A stretch of 8,553 nt of DNA from a virus (taxonomy: Duplodnaviria; Heunggongvirae; Uroviricota; Caudoviricetes), in the IMG/VR virus record IMGVR_UViG_2617270968_000006; one strand, given 5' to 3'. Both the position numbers and the translations under genes were made by a program. Of the stretch, positions 1-8,553 are shown one piece after another. Under the pieces are notes generated by a model. The model saw nothing but the letters and a program-made list of their open reading frames with translations. It searched no databases and was not told where the DNA came from. Positions within the stretch are counted from its first letter, which is position 1. Every line of letters begins with the position of its first letter.

Positions 1-1011
1 TTATAACGTCACTCCGCCTTTTAGTGGATTCAGAGCGACGGCGTTCTGCAGGTAGTCAGGCGCAAGGTGCGCATAGGTCATTGTCTGCTGAATGCTCGCA
101 TGCCCCAGAATCTGTTGCAGTGCAATTATGTTGCCCCCATTCATCATGAAATGGCTTGCGAATGTATGCCGCAGAATGTGGGTTGCCTGATTGGGAGGTA
201 TATCAGGTTTCACTCTGCGTAAAATCCCGCAAAACTTCTCATAATCTACCTTGAACAATTTGGCGCTGGCCTCCTCTTTAACTTTTTTCTCCAGTTCCTC
301 AGAAATCGGCACTGTTCGCTTTTTACCGTTTTTGGTTTTCAGGAAGGTAACCCTGCAACTTGTAATCTGTGCTGGTTTTAGTGTGGCAACTTCCGTCCAC
401 CTTCCTCCAGTGCTCAGACATAAAAGCGCGACAAGTAAGTCATCACCAGTCAAAACATTTAGCAGTTTTTCGATTTCTGCTTTTTCCAGGAACGTCATTT
501 CAGGGTTAGCCTCCGTCAGTGGCGGCAGTCCGTGAATTGGGTGTTGCCCGGAAAATTCATCCAATTGAATTAATTTTGTGAACATGCCGGATAATCGGTA
601 CATGTCGCGGTTTATCGTTGCAGCACTGATGCCATCACGTAGTCGCATGGAGCGATAATCCATCAAAGCCCTTTTGTTCATCCGACTCACTGGTATATCA
701 CCTATGCCGCTGATGGTTTTGAGCAGATGATTAAACTCTTTTGTCCCATGCTCGTGGTTTTGCCCGTGGTATTTCCACCAGATGTCGAGCAATTCTGTCA
801 AAGTTCGGCGGTCTGCTCGCTGGCCTCCCCATTCTTTCTGACTGGCATTGGCGATTGTGTATCGCTCAAATGCTAGTGCTTCAGCTTTTCTTTCAAATTT
901 CCTGCGGATGCGTTTTCCGTCGCGACCGCGAGGTCTAATGTCCACTTCATAGCGACCATCATCGAGCTTCTTAATTGCCATAAGAAAGCCCTCCGGCGCT
1001 GTATTCACCAT
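1..1011 (-). CDS. int: Tyrosine site-specific recombinase (P2-type integrase), 336 aa, complete; stop codon at 1..3
   Basis: ATG at 1009-1011 (minus) to TAA at 1-3. C-terminal region has the HxxR motif (HILRHTF) and a likely catalytic Tyr (TMTYAHL); basic N-terminal arm-binding-like domain. Size matches P2 Int (about 337 aa, from memory). Confidence 0.9.
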   Translation of the reverse strand: MVNTAPEGFLMAIKKLDDGRYEVDIRPRGRDGKRIRRKFERKAEALAFERYTIANASQKEWGGQRADRRTLTELLDIWWKYHGQNHEHGTKEFNHLLKTISGIGDIPVSRMNKRALMDYRSMRLRDGISAATINRDMYRLSGMFTKLIQLDEFSGQHPIHGLPPLTEANPEMTFLEKAEIEKLLNVLTGDDLLVALLCLSTGGRWTEVATLKPAQITSCRVTFLKTKNGKKRTVPISEELEKKVKEEASAKLFKVDYEKFCGILRRVKPDIPPNQATHILRHTFASHFMMNGGNIIALQQILGHASIQQTMTYAHLAPDYLQNAVALNPLKGGVTL

Positions 1012-1050
1012 CTTGGTGGCAAATGGTGAAAATGTAATTTTTATATAGAG

Positions 1051-1344
1051 TTAGCCAATCCTTTTCGCGGAGTGGTTGGATTCTGTTGACTCTGGCCCAC
1101 TGTGCGCGAGAGACGGTGCGATTTGTCCCGCTTCCGGCGCTGTTTTATCTGTCATGAGCCATAGTGTGTATTTTTGGAACTGAGGTGCATTGGTGACCTG
1201 CAACACAACTTGGATGCCAGGGTCTTGATGGCCTCCTTCGTAATTCTTTAGCGTTCCTAACGCTATGCCGCTGATTTCACTGAATTTTGCTTGAGTTAGC
1301 CCTTCCGATTGTCTTATTGCTCTTAATTTCTGTGCGATATTCAT
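1051..1344 (-). CDS. C: P2 C-type immunity repressor homolog, 97 aa (internal start of the 158-aa track ORF)
   Basis: Translation MNIAQKLRAIRQSEGLTQAKFSEISGIALGTLKNYEGG... has an N-terminal HTH and a C-terminal segment (QFQKYTLWLMTDKTAPEAGQIAPSLAHSG) strongly reminiscent of P2 C. Sits immediately upstream of and co-oriented with int, as in P2. Start chosen at ATG 1342-1344 because the longer form would overlap the divergent promoter region. Confidence 0.8.
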   Translation of the reverse strand: MNIAQKLRAIRQSEGLTQAKFSEISGIALGTLKNYEGGHQDPGIQVVLQVTNAPQFQKYTLWLMTDKTAPEAGQIAPSLAHSGPESTESNHSAKRIG

Positions 1345-1374
1345 TTGACATAGTCCTGACTTAATGACTATATT
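1345..1374 (+). promoter_or_regulatory. Candidate early promoter (Pe-like) driving cox-B-A: -35 TTGACA (1345-1350), 18-bp spacer, -10 TATATT (1369-1374)
   Basis: Consensus -35 hexamer and near-consensus -10 read directly from the sequence, positioned between the repressor start and cox. Confidence 0.45.
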
Positions 1375-1409
1375 CCCCGAAAAGGTCATTAATCCAGAAC
1401 CTTTTCGGG
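1361..1409. promoter_or_regulatory. Nested inverted repeats in the switch region: TTAATGAC (1361-1368) / GTCATTAA (1385-1392) flanking the -10, and CCCGAAAAGGT (1376-1386) / ACCTTTTCGGG (1399-1409); candidate operator(s) or leader RNA hairpin
   Basis: Perfect 8-bp and 11-bp inverted repeats seen directly in the sequence, overlapping the candidate Pe -10 and transcript start. Confidence 0.4.
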
Positions 1410-1479
1410 CGTGAGTCCAGCGCCGCTTAAACGGTTCCAAGCGGTTTTTAAGGGGCTGGATCCTATGAGGGTAACATAG

Positions 1480-1752
1480 ATGGAAGTTAATGATTATGTG
1501 ATTAAGTACCCGCTTGATGCGGTACATGCGGAAAAGTTTGCAGATTTATTGGGTAAACCAAAAACCGCAGTTACAGAAATGATAAAGGCTAACAAGCTAC
1601 CGGTTATCGAGCTTCGAGATCCAAATAAGCCGAAGGCCCGCGCCGGTGAGAAATGGGTTTTCATTCCAGAGTTTAATCGCGCTGTACGTGAGGCGTTTTA
1701 TAACCGACCGGTTGAACAGCGTGATGCATGGCTTTTGTGGATGGGGTTGTGA
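1480..1752 (+). CDS. cox: Cox-like excisionase / early repressor of lysogenic promoter, 90 aa
   Basis: First gene of the rightward operon. Translation carries KLPVIEL.DP...RAGEKWVFIPEFN...RDAWLLWMGL, which resembles my recollection of P2 Cox. GAGGG RBS 8 nt upstream of ATG 1480. Confidence 0.75.
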   Translation: MEVNDYVIKYPLDAVHAEKFADLLGKPKTAVTEMIKANKLPVIELRDPNKPKARAGEKWVFIPEFNRAVREAFYNRPVEQRDAWLLWMGL

Positions 1753-1754
1753 TT

Positions 1755-1925
1755 ATGAATGAGCCGCGTTGTATTGCGCAGTTACTGCGTAACGAAAGCC
1801 CCAGGGCGATTGACTTCACCATCACCCACGGGAAGGGACGCAAGGGAATCATTATCCGCACCAAAAAACAGAGTCCGTTAAAAAAGGCTCTGACCTTTCT
1901 GAAAAGCCGGAGGGTATGGAAATGA
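1755..1925 (+). CDS. Small hypothetical protein, 56 aa, in the position of P2 orf78
   Basis: ATG at 1755 three nt after the cox stop; basic small protein; assignment by synteny only. Confidence 0.5.
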   Translation: MNEPRCIAQLLRNESPRAIDFTITHGKGRKGIIIRTKKQSPLKKALTFLKSRRVWK

Positions 1926-2422
1926 CAGTGATGACGCTCAATCTCGTTGAAAAACAGCCAGCAGCTATGCGCCGGATAATTGGTAAGCATCTGGCCGTCC
2001 CTCGCTGGCAGGATACATGTGATTATTATAATCAGATGATGGAGCGCGAACGGCTAACAGTTTGCTTTCATGCGCAGTTAAAACAACGTCACGCAACGAT
2101 GCGTTTTGAAGAAATGAACGACGTCGAACGTGAACGACTGGTATGTGCAATTGATGAATTGCGTGGGGCATTCTCAAAACGCCGTCAGGTTGGCGCAAGT
2201 GAGTATGCATATATTAGTTTTTTAACAGTCAGTCAGCGTCGTACTTTATTTATGCATGCCGGATTGACTGAAAAAGAATTCAACCAGCCATACTGGCGAA
2301 TTAATGAAGAATCATGTTACTGGCGTGATGCTTTATTCCGTGCATTACGTGAATTATTCAGCCTGTTTGAGTATGCACCGACAATTCTGACGTCGGTAAA
2401 ACCAGAGCAATATCTGCATTAA
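1922..2422 (+). CDS. B: P2 B-like replication protein (DnaB helicase loader family), 166 aa
   Basis: Position between cox/orf78 and the small-ORF cluster, and a length equal to P2 B (166 aa when started at ATG 1922, 7 nt after a GGAGGG RBS). Start overlaps the orf78 stop (ATGA). Confidence 0.7.
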   Translation: MTVMTLNLVEKQPAAMRRIIGKHLAVPRWQDTCDYYNQMMERERLTVCFHAQLKQRHATMRFEEMNDVERERLVCAIDELRGAFSKRRQVGASEYAYISFLTVSQRRTLFMHAGLTEKEFNQPYWRINEESCYWRDALFRALRELFSLFEYAPTILTSVKPEQYLH

Positions 2423-2485
2423 GTAATTAACCAGAGTTTTTAACGCACTTAATTGTGCGGGGCTTCTTTTTGCCTGGAGAAAGTC

Positions 2486-2710
2486 ATGCATACAGTTTCT
2501 GAAAATCAGTGCGGTAAATACGCATTACTGCTGCAACAGGCCAGAACCGAAGCACAGGCCGATGCAGCGACGCGCTTTTCTTCTCATCTTGACGCCATGA
2601 TTCGACACATCACAAAGGCGGAGTTATCCCGCGTGGAGATAGTCGAGCTGCTCAGTCAGGAGTCGGAAAAATTTCACAATATCGGATTGTCTCGCGGGGA
2701 GGTGCTTTGA
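2486..2710 (+). CDS. Small hypothetical early protein, 74 aa (P2 orf80 position)
   Basis: GGAGAAAG RBS then ATG at 2486; stop TGA 2708-2710 overlaps the next start (TGATG). Function unknown. Confidence 0.5.
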
Positions 2711-3012
2711 TGTCCTGTTCTCGTTCGGTTGTATTACTGAATAACGCCTTAAAAATCGCCGTTATGAAAAATGGCGATTTATCTCTTATTCAACTTGGTC
2801 TTGATAAAGAAAAACGCGAAATAACTGAGTCTGTTATCGCGATTTATCAGAATGAATTAAATATCCTGTCTGATGTGGTCAATTTACTTGTTAAACGCGC
2901 TGTATTTCACAAGCAAATCTCCTCCGTGGATGAACTGACGAAATTAACGACAGAAATTGCCAGCTATTGCGCTGATGAATTTAAAAAACTTAACGACAAA
3001 AGGAGCTGGTAA
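2710..3012 (+). CDS. Small hypothetical early protein, 100 aa (P2 orf81 position)
   Basis: ATG at 2710 overlapping the upstream stop; stop TAA 3010-3012 overlaps the next ATG (TAATG). No recognisable motif. Confidence 0.5.
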   Translation: MSCSRSVVLLNNALKIAVMKNGDLSLIQLGLDKEKREITESVIAIYQNELNILSDVVNLLVKRAVFHKQISSVDELTKLTTEIASYCADEFKKLNDKRSW

Positions 3013-3236
3013 TGCCGGACAACGTGGATTTTATTCAGGAACAACAGGCTGAATTACTGGAGCGTCAGATTAACGCGGCAAGGGTAAAACATTGCGGTGC
3101 TTCTGCGCTGGTTTGCGAAGAGTGTGACGCGCCAATACCTGCTGCCCGTCGTGCGGCTTATCCGTCAGCCACGCGTTGTGTTTCCTGTCAGTCAGTCTTT
3201 GAAGCAAAAAACAAACATTACCGGAGAACGGCATGA
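3012..3236 (+). CDS. TraR/DksA-family C4 zinc-finger protein, 74 aa (P2 orf82 position)
   Basis: AAAGGAG RBS before ATG 3012. Translation contains CEEC-x17-CVSC, the CxxC-x17-CxxC spacing characteristic of DksA/TraR zinc fingers. Confidence 0.7.
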   Translation: MPDNVDFIQEQQAELLERQINAARVKHCGASALVCEECDAPIPAARRAAYPSATRCVSCQSVFEAKNKHYRRTA

Positions 3237-3508
3237 GTATTCGTATTGAAATTGGCGAACGTTATGTCGTTACCAGTGACAGCTTTCAGTTTATTCTCCA
3301 CGAGAAAAAGAGAGCGGAAAGCGGTAAAAACGCCGGTCAGGAATGGCTGGCGGTGGTTGGTTATTGCCCGAAATTAAGCCAGCTCGTTTCCGGCCTGATG
3401 CATCACGATATTCTGACCGGAAGCGCAAAGTCTTTTGCTGATTTAAACGCGCAGGTTGAGCAACTCAGCAGGCGTTGTTCAGAGGCTTTGGGCTCATATG
3501 GCCGTTAA
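3233..3508 (+). CDS. Small hypothetical early protein, 91 aa (P2 orf83 position)
   Basis: ATG 3233 overlaps the orf82 stop (ATGA); its own stop overlaps the start of A by about 11 nt. Confidence 0.5.
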   Translation: MSIRIEIGERYVVTSDSFQFILHEKKRAESGKNAGQEWLAVVGYCPKLSQLVSGLMHHDILTGSAKSFADLNAQVEQLSRRCSEALGSYGR

Positions 3509-5735
3509 AGCCTCCGGGCGTTTTGTCCCTCCGTCAGCATATGCCGCAGGCACCGGTAAGACGTTTACCGGTGCTTATGCATGGAACGCGCCACGCGAGG
3601 CTGTCGGGCGCGAAAGACCCCTTACACGTGACGAGATGCGTCAGGTGCAAGGTGTTTTATCCACGATTAACCGCCTGCCTTACTTTTTACGCTCGCTGTT
3701 TACTTCACGCTATGACTACATCCGGCGCAATAAAAGCCCGGTGCACGGGTTTTATTTCCTCACATCCACTTTTCAGCGTCGTTTATGGCCGCGCATTGAG
3801 CGTGTGAATCAGCGCCATGAAATGAACACCGACGCGTCGTTGCTGTTTCTGGCAGAGCGTGACCACTATGCGCGCCTGCCGGGAATGAATGACAAGGAGC
3901 TGAAAAAGTTTGCTGCCCGTATCTCATCGCAGCTTTTCATGATGTATGAGGAACTCTGCGATGCCTGGGTTGATGCACATGGCGAAAAAGAATCGCTGTT
4001 TACGGATGAGGCGCAGGCTCACCTCTATGGTCATGTTGCTGGCGCTGCATGTGCTTTCAATATTTCCCCGCTCTACTGGAAAAAATACCGTAAAGGACAG
4101 ATGACCACGAGGCAGGCATATTCTGCCATTGCCCGCCTGTTTAACGATGAGTGGTGGACTCATCAGCTTAAAGGCCAGCGTATGCGCTGGCATGAGGCGT
4201 TACTGATTGCTGTCGGGGAGGTCAATAAAGACCGTTCTCCTTATGCCAGTAAACATGCCATTCGGGATGTGCGTGCACGCCGCCAGGCAAATCTGGAATT
4301 TCTTAAATCGTGTGACCTTGAAAACAGGGAAACCGGCGAGCGCATCGACCTTATCAGTAAGGTGATGGGCAGTATTTCTAATCCTGAAATTCGCCGGATG
4401 GAGCTGATGAACACCATCGCTGGAATTGAGCGTTACGCCGCCGCAGAGGGTGATGTGGGGATGTTTATCACGCTGACCGCGCCGTCAAAGTATCACCCGA
4501 CTCGTCAGGTCAGAAAAGGCGAAAGTAAAACCGTTCAGCTTAATCACGGCTGGAACGATGAGGCATTTAATCCAAAGGATGCGCAGCGTTATCTCTGCCG
4601 TATCTGGAGCCTGATGCGCACGGCATTCAAGGATAATGATTTACAGGTCTACGGTTTGCGTGTCGTCGAGCCACACCACGACGGAACGCCGCACTGGCAT
4701 ATGATGCTTTTTTGTAATCCACGCCAGCGCAACCAGATTATCGAAATCATGCGTCGCTATGCGCTCAAAGAGGATGGCGACGAAAGAGGAGCCGCGCGAA
4801 ACCGTTTTCAGGCAAAACACCTTAACCGGGGCGGTGCTGCGGGATATATCGCGAAATACATTTCAAAAAACATCGACGGCTATGCACTGGATGGTCAGCT
4901 CGATAATGATACCGGTAGGCCGCTGAAAGACACAGCTGCGGCTGTTACCGCATGGGCGTCAACGTGGCGCATTCCGCAATTTAAAACGGTTGGCCTGCCG
5001 ACAATGGGGGCTTACCGTGAACTACGCAAATTGCCTCGCGGCGTCAGCATTGCTGATGAGTTTGACGAGCGCGTCGAGGCTGCACGCGCCGCTGCAGACA
5101 GTGGTGATTTTGCGTTGTATATCAGCGCGCAGGGCGGGGCAAATGTCCCGCGCGATTGTCAGACTGTCAGGGTCGCCCGTAGCCCGTCGGATGACGTTAA
5201 CGAGTACGAGGAAGAAGTCGAGAGAGTGGTCGGCATTTACGCGCCGCATCTCGGCGCGCGTCATATTCATATCACCAGAACGACGGACTGGCGCATTGTG
5301 CCGAAAGTTCCGGTCGTTGAGCCTTTGACTTTAAAAAGCGGCATCGCCGCGCCTCGGAGTCCTGTCAATAACTGTGGAAAGCTCACCGGTGGTGATACTT
5401 CGTTACCGGCTCCCACATCTTCTGAGCACGCCGCAGCAGTGCTAAATCTGGTTGAAGACGGTGTTATCGAATGGAATGACCCGGAGGTCGTGAGGACGCT
5501 CAGGGGTGCATTAAAACACGGCCTGAGAACACCAAATCGTCAGCAAAGAAACGGAATCCCGTTAAAACCGCATGAAATTGCACCATCTGCCAGACTGACC
5601 AGGTCTGAACGATTGCAAATTACCCGTAGCGGATATCGCGCGCGGCGGGATAGAACGAGCGAACGAGCTGGAACACGCCGACACCGAGGCCGGTGGCATC
5701 AATTCCGATGTATTCGACGTTGTATTTTTCGGTGA
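3498..5735 (+). CDS. A: P2 A-like rolling-circle replication initiator (HUH endonuclease), C-terminally disrupted: native sequence appears to end near 5625 and the last ~35 codons read through into antisense terminase DNA
   Basis: Start MAVKASGRFVPP at ATG 3498. HUH motif PHWHMML (HWH codons 4692-4700) and a YIAKYISK double-tyrosine motif (Tyr codons 4845-4847 and 4857-4859), as in phiX174/P2 A proteins. Tail SGYRARRDRTSERAGTRRHRGRW is arginine-rich junk overlapping the minus-strand P fragment. Confidence 0.85.
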   Translation: MAVKASGRFVPPSAYAAGTGKTFTGAYAWNAPREAVGRERPLTRDEMRQVQGVLSTINRLPYFLRSLFTSRYDYIRRNKSPVHGFYFLTSTFQRRLWPRIERVNQRHEMNTDASLLFLAERDHYARLPGMNDKELKKFAARISSQLFMMYEELCDAWVDAHGEKESLFTDEAQAHLYGHVAGAACAFNISPLYWKKYRKGQMTTRQAYSAIARLFNDEWWTHQLKGQRMRWHEALLIAVGEVNKDRSPYASKHAIRDVRARRQANLEFLKSCDLENRETGERIDLISKVMGSISNPEIRRMELMNTIAGIERYAAAEGDVGMFITLTAPSKYHPTRQVRKGESKTVQLNHGWNDEAFNPKDAQRYLCRIWSLMRTAFKDNDLQVYGLRVVEPHHDGTPHWHMMLFCNPRQRNQIIEIMRRYALKEDGDERGAARNRFQAKHLNRGGAAGYIAKYISKNIDGYALDGQLDNDTGRPLKDTAAAVTAWASTWRIPQFKTVGLPTMGAYRELRKLPRGVSIADEFDERVEAARAAADSGDFALYISAQGGANVPRDCQTVRVARSPSDDVNEYEEEVERVVGIYAPHLGARHIHITRTTDWRIVPKVPVVEPLTLKSGIAAPRSPVNNCGKLTGGDTSLPAPTSSEHAAAVLNLVEDGVIEWNDPEVVRTLRGALKHGLRTPNRQQRNGIPLKPHEIAPSARLTRSERLQITRSGYRARRDRTSERAGTRRHRGRWHQFRCIRRCIFR

Positions 5736-6180
5736 GTTTGCGGATGGATTCAGCCTGGGTGGCAAAGTCCATGCCTTTCCACTGGTGACGCTCAAGTATT
5801 CTGAATTTGCCACCGGCCACCACCGGCGGTGCCAGTACCACGCATCCGGCGCTGTCGCCACGGTGTGACGGGTCGTAACCAATCCATACCGGGCGGGATC
5901 CGAACGGATTGGCGGCAAACGGCGCATAGTCTTCCCATTCTTCCAGCGTGTCGACCATGCAGCGTTGCAGCTCCTCGAACGGGAACACCGACGCCTTGTC
6001 GTCAACAAATTCACACATGAACAGGTTTTTAAAATCGTCGGCGCTGTTTTCGCGTTTAAGCTGCTCAATGTCGAACAGCGTGCAGCCACCTTTCAGGGCG
6101 TCCTCAATGGTGACAATCTGCCGCCACTGGCCGTCCGCACAGAGAAGCCCACCGGCAAGGGCGTTATGTCCCGCCGACAC
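5620..6180 (-). pseudogene. Fragment (about 186 codons) of terminase large subunit (P2 gpP-like), nuclease-domain region; N-terminal ATPase portion deleted
   Basis: Translation contains WIGYDPSHRGDSAGCVVLAPP and EYIGIDATGLGVGV, typical acidic-residue motifs of the terminase RNase-H-like nuclease domain. Minus-strand orientation relative to A matches P2, where Q and P are transcribed opposite to A. Far too short for a terminase. Confidence 0.7.
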
Positions 6181-6185
6181 CGGCC

Positions 6186-6746
6186 GTGATGGAATCTGAC
6201 ACCGATTATCGTCTGCGTATTCAGCAGGCCTTTGAAGGTTTAAGCGTCGCCGGGTCGGTGGGTGCCTATCAGTATCATGGTCGCAGTGCTGACGGGCGTG
6301 TCGCGGATATCTCTGTCACCAGTCCGTCTCCGGCCTGCGTCACCATCTCTGTGCTGTCACGTGAAAATAACGGTGTCGCATCCGAAGACCTGCTGGCGGT
6401 GGTGCGTAACGCCCTTAATGGCGAGGACGTCAGGCCGGTGGCCGACCGCGTGACCGTGCAGTCTGCCGCCATCGTTGAATATCAGATAAACGCCACGCTT
6501 TACCTTTACCCTGGTCCCGAAAGCGAACCCATTCGCGCTGCCGCTGTGAAAAAGCTGGAAGCGTATATCACGGCACAGCACCGGCTGGGGCGCGACATCC
6601 GTTTGTCTGCCATTTATGCCGCTTTGCATGTGGAAGGCGTGCAGCGTGTCGAGCTGGCCGCACCACTGGCCGACATTGTGCTCAACAGTACGCAGGCGTC
6701 TTTCTGTACCGAATACCGCGTCGTGACCGGAGGCTCGGATGAGTGA
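6186..6746 (+). pseudogene. C-terminal fragment (about 186 aa) of baseplate assembly protein J-like; 5' part deleted
   Basis: Directly followed by an overlapping ATGAGTGA junction with the gpI start, as for J/I in P2; abuts the terminase fragment with no intervening genes. Confidence 0.65.
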
Positions 6747-6903
6747 TTCGCGACTGCTGCCGACTGGCTCATCACCGCTTGAAGTTGCCGCCGCAAAAGC
6801 CTGTGCGGAAATTGAAAAAACGCCGGTCAGTATTCGTGAGCTGTGGAACCCGGATACCTGCCCGGCAAATCTGCTGCCGTGGCTGGCGTGGTCATTTTCG
6901 GTT
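6739..6903 (+). pseudogene. N-terminal fragment (about 55 aa) of baseplate protein I-like; remainder deleted
   Basis: MSDSRLLPTGSSPLEVAAAKACAEIEKTPVSIRELWNPDTCPANLLPWLAW matches my recollection of the P2 gpI N-terminus; the frame then degenerates and terminates at 6966. Confidence 0.6.
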
Positions 6904-6939
6904 GGCGGAGTTCTCCATCAGCCTGGCTACCGGTCGGGC

Positions 6940-7114
6940 AGATATTTACACGGAAACACCGGTTAAAGTGTCAGGCTTTAAGCGCGTCATAGACGAGCAG
7001 GACTGGACAATCACTAAGGTGACACATTTTCTGAATAATAGCGGCTTCACGACGTCCTTGGAGCTTGAGGTCAGGCTTTCTGATGTGGAGTACGAAACAG
7101 AAGATGATGAGTGA
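6940..7114 (+). pseudogene. C-terminal fragment of tail protein D-like (last ~60 aa), ending with an acidic tail EYETEDDE immediately upstream of ogr
   Basis: Different reading frame from the I fragment; position immediately upstream of ogr matches P2 gene order (D-ogr). Start of homology is approximate. Confidence 0.55.
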
Positions 7115-7195
7115 TGTTTTTGTTTTATCTGTTTGTTTTATAAGGATAAATTAACTAAAATGGCACCATCAACAAAACCGGAAGAGGTGCTCGCG

Positions 7196-7414
7196 ATGTT
7201 TCATTGTCCTTTATGCCAGCATGCCGCACATGCGCGTACAAGCCGCTATATCACTGACACGACAAAAGAGCGTTATCACCAGTGTCAGAACGTGAATTGC
7301 AGCGCCACGTTCATCACCTATGAGTCGGTACAGAGATACATCGTGAAGCCGGGAGAAGTCCACGCCGTAAGGCCGCACCCGTTGCCGTCAGGGCAGCAAA
7401 TTATGTGGATGTGA
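7196..7414 (+). CDS. ogr: Ogr late-gene transcription activator (zinc-finger), 72 aa, intact
   Basis: MFHCPLCQHAAHARTSRYITDTTKERYHQCQNVNCSATFITYESVQRYIVKPGEVHAVRPHPLPSGQQIMWM corresponds to P2 Ogr as I recall it, with Cys4 motif CPLC...CQNVNC. GAAGAGG RBS before ATG 7196. Confidence 0.9.
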   Translation: MFHCPLCQHAAHARTSRYITDTTKERYHQCQNVNCSATFITYESVQRYIVKPGEVHAVRPHPLPSGQQIMWM

Positions 7415-7424
7415 TCACAAAAAT

Positions 7425-7450
7425 AGCCCCTCAGTTGAGGGGCTTTATTT
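7425..7450 (+). terminator. Rho-independent terminator after ogr
   Basis: Stem AGCCCCTC (7425-7432), loop AGTT, GAGGGGCT (7437-7444), followed by TTTATTT. Confidence 0.7.
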
Positions 7451-7457
7451 ATGGTCG

Positions 7458-7476
7458 ATGTGGACGCTATGTGGAC
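7458..7476 (+). repeat. Two direct repeats ATGTGGAC (7458-7465 and 7469-7476); candidate integrase arm-type binding sites of the att P-arm
   Basis: Direct repeats seen in the sequence; they resemble my recollection of the P2 Int arm-site consensus (TGTGGACA-like) and sit where the P arm should be (just after ogr). A third similar copy, ATGTGGAT, lies at the ogr 3' end (7403-7410). Confidence 0.5.
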
Positions 7477-7542
7477 AGCGGTTGACATAAATCCATTTAT
7501 ATCATCAGGTTAGGTGCTTTTTTGTGACACCATCCCTGTCTT

Positions 7543-7569
7543 CCCCCACATGCTGTGGGGGTTTTTTTT
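7543..7569 (+). terminator. Rho-independent terminator-like hairpin; possibly the 3' end of the host gene at the att core
   Basis: Stem CCCCCACA (7543-7550), loop TGC, TGTGGGGG (7554-7561), then T8 (7562-7569). Confidence 0.65.
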
Positions 7570-7597
7570 ATCCTCAATTTGCCTGCTGCTTAATGCA

Positions 7598-7624
7598 TTG
7601 CAGATGATTTGCTTCCGTTATACT
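7598..7624 (+). promoter_or_regulatory. Weak candidate fieF promoter: -35 TTGCAG (7598-7603), -10 TATACT (7619-7624), 15-bp spacer
   Basis: Hexamer matches only; spacer is suboptimal. Confidence 0.3.
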
Positions 7625-7650
7625 AGCGTCAGTTGATAGCGGGAGTATTT

Positions 7651-8553
7651 ATGAATCAATCTTATGGACGGCTGGTCAGTCGGGCGGCGATTGCTGCGAC
7701 GGCGATGGCTTCGCTGCTATTGCTGATTAAAATTTTTGCATGGTGGTATACCGGGTCGGTGAGTATTCTCGCCGCGCTGGTGGATTCGCTGGTGGATATC
7801 GGCGCGTCGTTGACGAATTTATTGGTGGTGCGATATTCCCTGCAACCTGCCGACGATAATCACTCGTTTGGTCACGGTAAAGCTGAGTCCCTCGCGGCGC
7901 TGGCGCAAAGTATGTTTATCTCCGGTTCGGCACTATTCCTGTTTTTGACGGGTATTCAACATCTGATATCTCCAACACCGATGACAGATCCAGGCGTCGG
8001 GGTTATCGTGACAATTGTGGCGCTAATTTGTACGATTATCCTTGTCTCGTTTCAGCGTTGGGTGGTGCGGCGGACGCAAAGCCAGGCGGTGCGGGCTGAT
8101 ATGCTACATTACCAGTCTGATGTTATGATGAACGGCGCAATTCTGCTGGCGCTGGGGTTGTCCTGGTACGGCTGGCATCGCGCCGATGCTCTGTTTGCAT
8201 TGGGAATCGGCATCTATATTTTATATAGCGCGTTACGCATGGGATATGAGGCGGTACAGTCATTACTGGATCGCGCATTGCCTGATGAGGAACGGCAAGA
8301 AATTATTGATATCGTGACTTCCTGGCCGGGTGTTAGCGGCGCTCACGATCTTCGCACGCGGCAGTCAGGGCCGACCCGCTTTATTCAGATTCATTTGGAA
8401 ATGGAAGACTCTCTGCCTTTGGTTCAGGCACATATGGTGGCGGATCAGGTAGAGCAGGCTATTTTACGGCGTTTTCCGGGATCGGATGTAATTATCCATC
8501 AGGACCCCTGTTCCGTCGTACCCAGGGAGGGTAAACGGTCTATGCTTTCATAA
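7651..8553 (+). CDS. fieF: Cation diffusion facilitator family Fe(II)/Zn(II) efflux transporter FieF (YiiP), 300 aa
   Basis: Translation from ATG 7651 ([53 protein letters not shown]...) matches enterobacterial FieF as I recall it, including the HSFGHGKAE motif region and a hydrophobic transmembrane profile. The track start at 7633 is a TTG upstream extension. Confidence 0.95.

Follow-up and report, generated by a model that had tools for sequence, protein, structure and literature searches.

The window analysed here (the whole stretch of 8,553 bp) contains a phage gene, ogr, followed shortly by a host gene, fieF, and the interval between them (nt 7415–7650) raises the question of where the prophage ends and what host sequence it has used as its attachment site. 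A preliminary description had read this interval as an attR-like end lying in an intergenic terminator region directly upstream of fieF, and not in a tRNA gene. The comparisons described below make it very probable that nt 7415–7650 represent the attR of a defective, WΦ-type, P2-like (Peduovirus) prophage at the published cpxP/fieF attachment site of WΦ. The phage family, the element and the chromosomal location have all been described previously, and the junction is ordinary apart from its overlap with the gene for the small RNA (sRNA) CpxQ. In E. coli W, the prophage 'Wphi1 (P2)' is listed at 'cpxP-fieF' (PMC3032704), and Nilsson et al. placed WΦ and L-413C at MG1655 coordinate 4104392, with one common core (PMC3448106).

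The opposite (attL) end of the prophage is marked by int (nt 1–981, minus strand; Pfam Int_N and Phage_integrase), which specifies a WΦ-type heterobivalent tyrosine recombinase. Position 1 of the window is the int stop codon, and the annotated int of strain 26561 has the same coordinates. The predicted Int is 97% identical to that of WΦ and 52% identical to that of P2, and alignment shows its arm-binding N-terminus to be nearly identical to that of P2 Int. The last phage gene before attR is the late-gene activator ogr (nt 7196–7414, plus strand; Pfam Ogr_Delta, E = 1e-21), and in strain WEM25 ogrK is annotated at the equivalent position. Beyond the junction, fieF (nt 7651–8553, plus strand; Pfam Cation_efflux and ZT_dimer) encodes a host cation-diffusion-facilitator exporter, and is annotated as fieF in all genomes compared. 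The best-matching complete E. coli genome covers 91% of the window.

The prophage itself is a remnant of about 7.5 kb (nt 1–7572). Its int, HTH repressor, cox, early genes and gene A (nt 3456–5735) look intact, and are followed by a fragment of the terminase large subunit (nt 5623–6180, minus strand), a baseplate-J fragment (nt 6186–6743), a short C-terminal fragment of gpD (nt 6743–7114) and then ogr. Several successive deletions have removed nearly all of the structural genes, and a related prophage in strain 26561 carries different deletions. With a prophage reduced to this extent, the att site may be a fossil.

The limits of the junction were located by a megablast comparison of nt 7415–7650 with 5426 complete E. 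coli genomes. Every genome (5426/5426) matches the region, 787 of them over at least 80% of its length. In most of the remainder, K-12 derivatives included, the match begins only at query position 112, i.e., nt 7526 of the window. From the phage side, the match to WΦ (AY135739) and to about 70 other Peduovirus records runs from ogr to nt 7572 and then stops. With a left limit from the empty sites and a right limit from the phage genomes, the attR therefore consists of a P arm, a core and a host flank. The phage-derived P arm (nt 7415–7525, plus strand) is absent from empty sites and present in the WΦ genome. The core (nt 7526–7572, plus strand; GACACCATCCCTGTCTTCCCCCACATG[C]TGTGGGGGTTTTTTTTATC) is 47 bp long and common to attP, attB, attL and attR, its right limit being given by the attL of lysogens as well as by WΦ. 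The native B′ flank upstream of fieF (nt 7573–7650, plus strand) is identical to the empty sites of MG1655, HS and O157. The attR-like character of this end is borne out by both the empty-site and the WΦ comparisons, and the phage/host boundary falls at nt 7526–7572, not near nt 7570–7650 as first suggested.

The empty K-12 site reads cpxP-TAA-accctgTTTTCCTTGCCATA / GACACCATCC...TTTTTTTTATC / CTCAATTTGCC...fieF, and over the 47 bp the cores of WΦ attP and K-12 attB are alike apart from one polymorphic base in a hairpin loop. The cpxP side and attL were read in related lysogens, the window's own attL being beyond the window edge. In strains 26561, AR435 and E-ge-1, attL lies just past cpxP and shows the same 47 bp, then the P′ arm, then the int stop codon, and the P′ arm carries TGTGGACA twice. 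The attL of the window prophage would by analogy run from the cpxP stop through TTTTCCTTGCCATA to the 47 bp core with A in the loop, then to the P′ arm (TGTGGACA twice) and int. One genome, strain EPSSH018 (NZ_CP125889.1, nt 3286372–3286450), matches only from nt 7572 of the window rightwards, exactly the right edge of the core, which suggests that another element, or a rearrangement, borders on this junction there.

The core lies within an annotated RNA gene. In the MG1655 RefSeq record, the ncRNA gene cpxQ (b4716; 58 nt, TTTTCCTTGCCATAGACACC...GGGGGTTTTTTTT) begins 9 nt past the stop codon of cpxP. CpxQ has a reported length of 58 nt, and a seed at its 5′ end acts on nhaB and cfa (PMC6755755). 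The 47 bp core begins at nt 15 of CpxQ and ends 3 bp beyond its end (44 nt plus 3 bp), so that attB overlaps the 3′ three-quarters of this gene and the attP of WΦ carries a copy of that part. In the window, nt 7526–7569 (plus strand) are a 5′-truncated copy of CpxQ (nt 15–58 of 58) without the 5′ seed, as judged by identity to MG1655 cpxQ. They include the Rho-independent terminator of cpxP/CpxQ (nt 7543–7569, plus strand), which was found by both terminator scan and folding: a hairpin at nt 7543–7561 (CCCCCACATGCTGTGGGGG, or CCCCCACA-TGC-TGTGGGGG) followed by T8 (nt 7562–7569). By sequence identity, then, the attB of WΦ is an sRNA gene, or equally the 3′UTR of cpxP with its terminator, and not anonymous intergenic DNA. 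The earlier placement of the target directly upstream of fieF, and outside any tRNA, was correct, but its description as an intergenic region has to be replaced by the 3′ part of cpxQ. Similarly, the 'host-type' terminator is indeed native host sequence, but it lies in the core common to attP and attB and is the terminator of cpxP/CpxQ.

At the attL of strain 26561, the full 58 nt CpxQ is present, made up of host nt 1–14 and the core. The predicted fold of this hybrid is identical to that of the wild type, and the C-to-A change in the loop leaves fold and energy unchanged. The copy at attR fails as a functional CpxQ gene, with nt 1–14 missing and phage DNA rather than cpxP before it. A literature search found no paper linking CpxQ to a phage attachment site. 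The WΦ site was described earlier than CpxQ was discovered. The overlap with CpxQ is an annotation-level addition rather than a new kind of system.

An Rfam scan of the window gave no family at gathering score, and Rfam has no family by the name of CpxQ. The top match was to RF02628 ('Hrs1', from Erwinia amylovora), on the minus strand; this model matches the cpxQ locus on that strand with 41 bits in MG1655 (L007, nt 816–888) and 29 bits at the attR copy (window nt 7503–7569). Hrs1 has been reported between cpxP and fieF, on the strand of cpxP (PMC4070566), and the RF02628 model appears to be the reverse complement of the CpxQ homologue. The match was set aside as independent support, since the model describes the CpxQ locus read from the other strand.

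The elements previously noted between ogr and fieF (a terminator after ogr, two direct repeats, an IHF-like match at nt 7500–7512, and the hairpin with T8) were all found at the positions given for them. The Rho-independent terminator of ogr (nt 7425–7453, plus strand; terminator scan, fold z = −3.6) has a stem-loop at nt 7425–7444 and a T-rich tail that is interrupted (TTTATTTAT). The P2 feature described as 'rho-independent terminator for ogr transcript and F operon' aligns with nt 7425–7444. Further downstream are two direct repeats (nt 7458–7477, plus strand), with ATGTGGAC at nt 7458–7465 and nt 7469–7476, a spacing of 11 bp; the second repeat reads TGTGGACA. There are exactly two copies of ATGTGGAC in the 8553 bp window, above the 0.29 expected by chance, and only 4/200 shuffled windows had at least two. 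The arm consensus of P2-type integrases is tgTGGaCa (PMC3448106), which the repeats fit, and in an alignment of P2, WΦ and the window, nt 7455–7480 line up in register with the Int P-arm site annotated for P2. They are predicted to be arm-type Int-binding sites, as had been proposed, in agreement with both the P2 alignment and the conservation described below.

The putative equivalent of the IHF site (nt 7485–7518, plus strand) consists of TATCATCAGGTTA at nt 7500–7512, one mismatch from the IHF consensus WATCAANNNNTTR, with an A/T-rich tract before it. Taken alone, the match is not above chance, since five one-mismatch matches occur in the window and 7.9 are expected. It is rescued because nt 7485–7518 coincide in the alignment with the IHF site that P2 attP carries as an annotated protein_bind feature, and because the specified bases of the consensus are conserved across P arms while its N positions vary. 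The earlier suggestion of an IHF-like site therefore holds to the extent that the element appears homologous to the IHF site of P2.

Conservation was assessed in 33 P arms (25 distinct) collected from IMG/VR contigs, E. coli genomes and species representatives. The sequences upstream of these arms differ, and fall into at least three unrelated terminator or cargo contexts. Across the 25 distinct arms, ATGTGGACG-TATGTGGAC is invariant and every position of both arm repeats is kept, while ATAAATCCATT-ATATCA is kept at all but one position (one arm has a C at the gap). It is in this same set that the N positions of the IHF consensus vary and its specified bases do not. The pattern is as expected for real protein-binding sites. 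Four features typical of P2 att sites are found, i.e., two tgTGGaCa-type repeats, an IHF-site equivalent between these and the core, a core shared by attP and attB, and a cognate Int at the other end.

Two further features of the P arm may be mentioned. A perfect −35 hexamer, TTGACA, is found at nt 7482–7487, between the arm repeats and the IHF site. A promoter at this position, driving the truncated CpxQ, was considered and rejected: the hexamer has no −10 partner at 16–18 bp, WΦ and the majority of other P arms have TTGATA in its place, and a consensus scan of nt 7000–7800 found no sigma-70-like promoter. It is probably fortuitous. The empty scan also agrees with the earlier remark that only a weak promoter candidate precedes fieF. 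In strains 26561 and AR435, the space between the ogr terminator and the arm repeats holds a 642 bp ORF (hypothetical protein WP_000416606.1) with its own terminator, and in AR435 an IS150 copy as well. This cargo (moron) slot adjoining the P arm (L003, nt 14506–15147; L062, nt 42385–44540) is absent from the window.

The polymorphic base of the core (core position 28, window nt 7553, in the hairpin loop) provides information on where strands are exchanged. The window attR has C. The attP of WΦ has A, as do all 25 attL junctions from IMG/VR (25/25), the empty sites of HS, ST131 and O157, and the empty sites of 100/100 species representatives (Klebsiella, Citrobacter, Enterobacter, Salmonella subspecies, Erwinia, Pantoea, Edwardsiella and others). 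The C allele was read directly in MG1655 and DH5alpha, and empty sites identical to K-12 over an 84 bp query were found in about 10 of 60 evenly sampled E. coli genomes. C in the terminator loop is, then, a K-12-type minority allele, and with C at its attR, the host of the window prophage therefore belongs to a K-12-like allele group. A use of C versus A as a universal phage/host marker was rejected, as most E. coli and 100/100 of the other Enterobacterales have A at their empty sites; the marker is informative in K-12-type (C) hosts only. In three E. coli lysogens with this allele, attR has C and attL has A (3/3), although these are perhaps not independent integrations, as 26561 and AR435 share cargo genes. 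The loop base of attL comes from the phage and that of attR from the host, and exchange therefore probably takes place to the left of nt 7553. A consequence is that lysogeny turns the functional CpxQ copy, at attL, into the A allele.

Within the left part of the core there is a candidate region for strand exchange (nt 7526–7540, no strand assigned), in which an inverted repeat, GACA/TGTC, surrounds a 7 bp spacer, CCATCCC (nt 7530–7536). An inverted repeat around a 7 bp spacer is the classical arrangement of core-type sites flanking an overlap region, and exchange may possibly occur at CCATCCC, between GACA and TGTC.

These features suggest the following course of integration. The phage attP would bring its own copy of the last 44 nt of CpxQ plus 3 bp. 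Int would bridge arm and core sites, the two arm-type sites on the P arm being one helical turn apart, with IHF assisting by bending the DNA, and strands would be exchanged in the left part of the core, left of nt 7553. At attL, a full-length CpxQ with the cpxP terminator would be rebuilt from a host 5′ part and a phage 3′ part. The attR would be left with a 5′-truncated copy lacking the seed, which would still place a terminator ahead of the unaltered upstream region of fieF. Binding by Int and IHF, and the precise point of exchange, are the steps we infer from alignment with known sites.

Other explanations of the junction have been considered. If the repeats and the hairpin were all native host sequence, the prophage boundary would lie elsewhere. 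The hairpin with T8, and everything to the right of nt 7526, do occur in prophage-free genomes, but nt 7415–7525, with the repeats and the IHF site, are missing from empty sites and contiguous with ogr in free phage genomes, and the boundary is bracketed from both sides at nt 7526–7572. Of what had been proposed as native, then, the hairpin is and the repeats are not, and a boundary outside this bracket is so improbable that it can practically be dismissed. It could also be supposed that strands are exchanged in the terminator hairpin or further to its right, the palindrome itself being the recombination site. The terminator is a near-perfect palindrome and could be read as two inverted core-type sites, e.g., with the stem arms CCCCCA and TGGGGG as core-type Int sites and a 7 bp overlap containing the loop; moreover, the loop base is A in most hosts, as in the phage, so that no heterology would arise there. 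This is improbable given the C-allele hosts, where attL has A and attR has C in all three lysogens, the opposite of what an exchange to the right of the loop predicts. An attL with C was seen in 0/25 IMG/VR junctions, and an overlap that included the mismatch would predict mixed outcomes and impaired recombination. Exchange to the left of the loop is the reading retained here.

A regulatory effect of the junction is another alternative, whether by read-through from ogr or the late operon into fieF, or by a transcribed, Hfq-binding truncated CpxQ (the attR copy, or the attP copy of the free phage) that perturbs the Cpx response. The attR copy retains the terminator hairpin, the U8 tail and an upstream stem-loop, it lies on the same strand as ogr, 112 bp downstream of it, and the ogr terminator has the interrupted T tail noted above (TTTATTTAT). 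Against this, a transcript from ogr would meet two terminators in tandem before reaching fieF, and the last 125 bp ahead of the fieF ATG, with the terminator they contain, do not differ from the empty K-12 site. The cpxP terminator is the one that normally shields fieF from cpxP transcription. With 125 bp of native upstream DNA, including that terminator, an effect on fieF is therefore unlikely; the displacement of native fieF upstream elements envisaged in the preliminary description is contradicted, and the read-through from ogr that it also envisaged is unsupported and appears unlikely. As for the RNA, the attR copy lacks nt 1–14 of CpxQ, i.e., the 5′ seed for nhaB and cfa (PMC6755755), no promoter-like site is present in nt 7000–7800, and the −35 hexamer at nt 7482–7487 lacks a −10 partner and reads TTGATA in WΦ. 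A regulatory effect in either form is accordingly given little credence, about as little as exchange at the hairpin, and we infer that insertion would be neutral for the expression of CpxQ and fieF.

One specific form of this idea deserves a separate comment, even if it is a long shot. The phage fragment of CpxQ (stem-loop 1, terminator and U-tail) follows ogr in free phage DNA and is found at attR once a lysogen has formed. The captured 3′ 44 nt of CpxQ could conceivably be more than a homology handle, if read-through of a leaky ogr terminator produced a seedless, Hfq-binding mimic that competes with CpxQ or for Hfq. If true, the mimic might modulate the envelope-stress response in lytic growth or in lysogeny.

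Comparison with known systems shows how closely the junction follows its relatives. The closest is WΦ (Peduovirus Wphi, AY135739), which has the same site and the same layout, with near-identical sequence all the way from ogr to the core (terminator, repeats and IHF element included). The window copy differs from WΦ attP in being a recombined attR with host DNA on its right and C rather than A in the loop, and in belonging to a heavily deleted prophage. In the P2 record (NC_001895), ogr is followed by a Rho-independent terminator and then by experimentally annotated sites, namely the Int P-arm, IHF, attP core, Cox and Int P′-arm sites. The window shows the same succession of elements, its arm repeats and IHF site are homologous, and its Int is likewise heterobivalent with a conserved arm-binding N-terminus. 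P2 differs in its core sequence and target, in the length of the core (27 bp in P2, 47 bp here) and in its Int, with the 52% identity given above. The target of P2 is likewise listed as an sRNA locus, P2-type prophages being listed at 'cyaR RNA' and 'rybB ncRNA' (PMC3032704). Other P2-like phages use tRNA or tmRNA genes, 186 integrating in tRNA-Ile, and Fels-2 and SopEΦ in ssrA (PMC3448106). These resemble the WΦ type in that attP includes the 3′ portion of an RNA gene of the host, the intact gene is regenerated at the int-side junction, and the identity blocks are long. They differ in that the RNA here is a 3′UTR-derived, Hfq-dependent sRNA and not tRNA-like, and in that the arm sites are of the P2 type and not the 186 type. 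With respect to CpxQ itself (b4716; Hrs1 in Erwinia amylovora), nt 7526–7569 are identical to nt 15–58, including the terminator, but the attR copy lacks nt 1–14, has neither the context for RNase E processing nor the cpxP promoter that depends on CpxR, and arose as a by-product of recombination.

Among complete E. coli genomes, 787/5426 (14.5%) have the attR sequence. Outside this set, junctions with arm repeats were found in Yokenella regensburgei, Citrobacter meridianamericanus, a Kluyvera sp., Erwinia aeris and an Escherichia sp., and the B′ flank of one IMG/VR attR matches the reverse complement of a cpxP-fieF primer for Salmonella Infantis. The interval of that primer, cpxP-fieF, holds a 31.7 kb insert in Salmonella Infantis (bioRxiv 10.64898/2026.03.17.712176). 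By exact pattern match, the 44 nt CpxQ segment is conserved without change in at least 100 species representatives across the Enterobacterales, and conservation of CpxQ on this scale, across more than 100 species representatives, makes it an unusually broad-range attB. The 5′ 14 nt of CpxQ are conserved in 105/108 loci, and genera in which the whole of CpxQ is conserved include Klebsiella, Enterobacter, Citrobacter, Salmonella (subspecies), Kluyvera, Erwinia, Pantoea, Mixta and Edwardsiella.

The preliminary description is routine annotation and correctly marks the right end of a P2-family prophage; to this the comparisons add an exact P arm (nt 7415–7525) and core (nt 7526–7572), and the base in the terminator loop is a natural single-base marker that locates strand exchange. 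The position of WΦ attB within cpxQ adds this gene to the sRNA loci used by P2-like phages, beside cyaR and rybB (PMC3032704). In about 14% of complete E. coli genomes, CpxQ is a hybrid with a phage-derived 3′ part and is accompanied by a second, truncated copy, and these hybrid and truncated copies matter for read mapping and for sRNA annotation.
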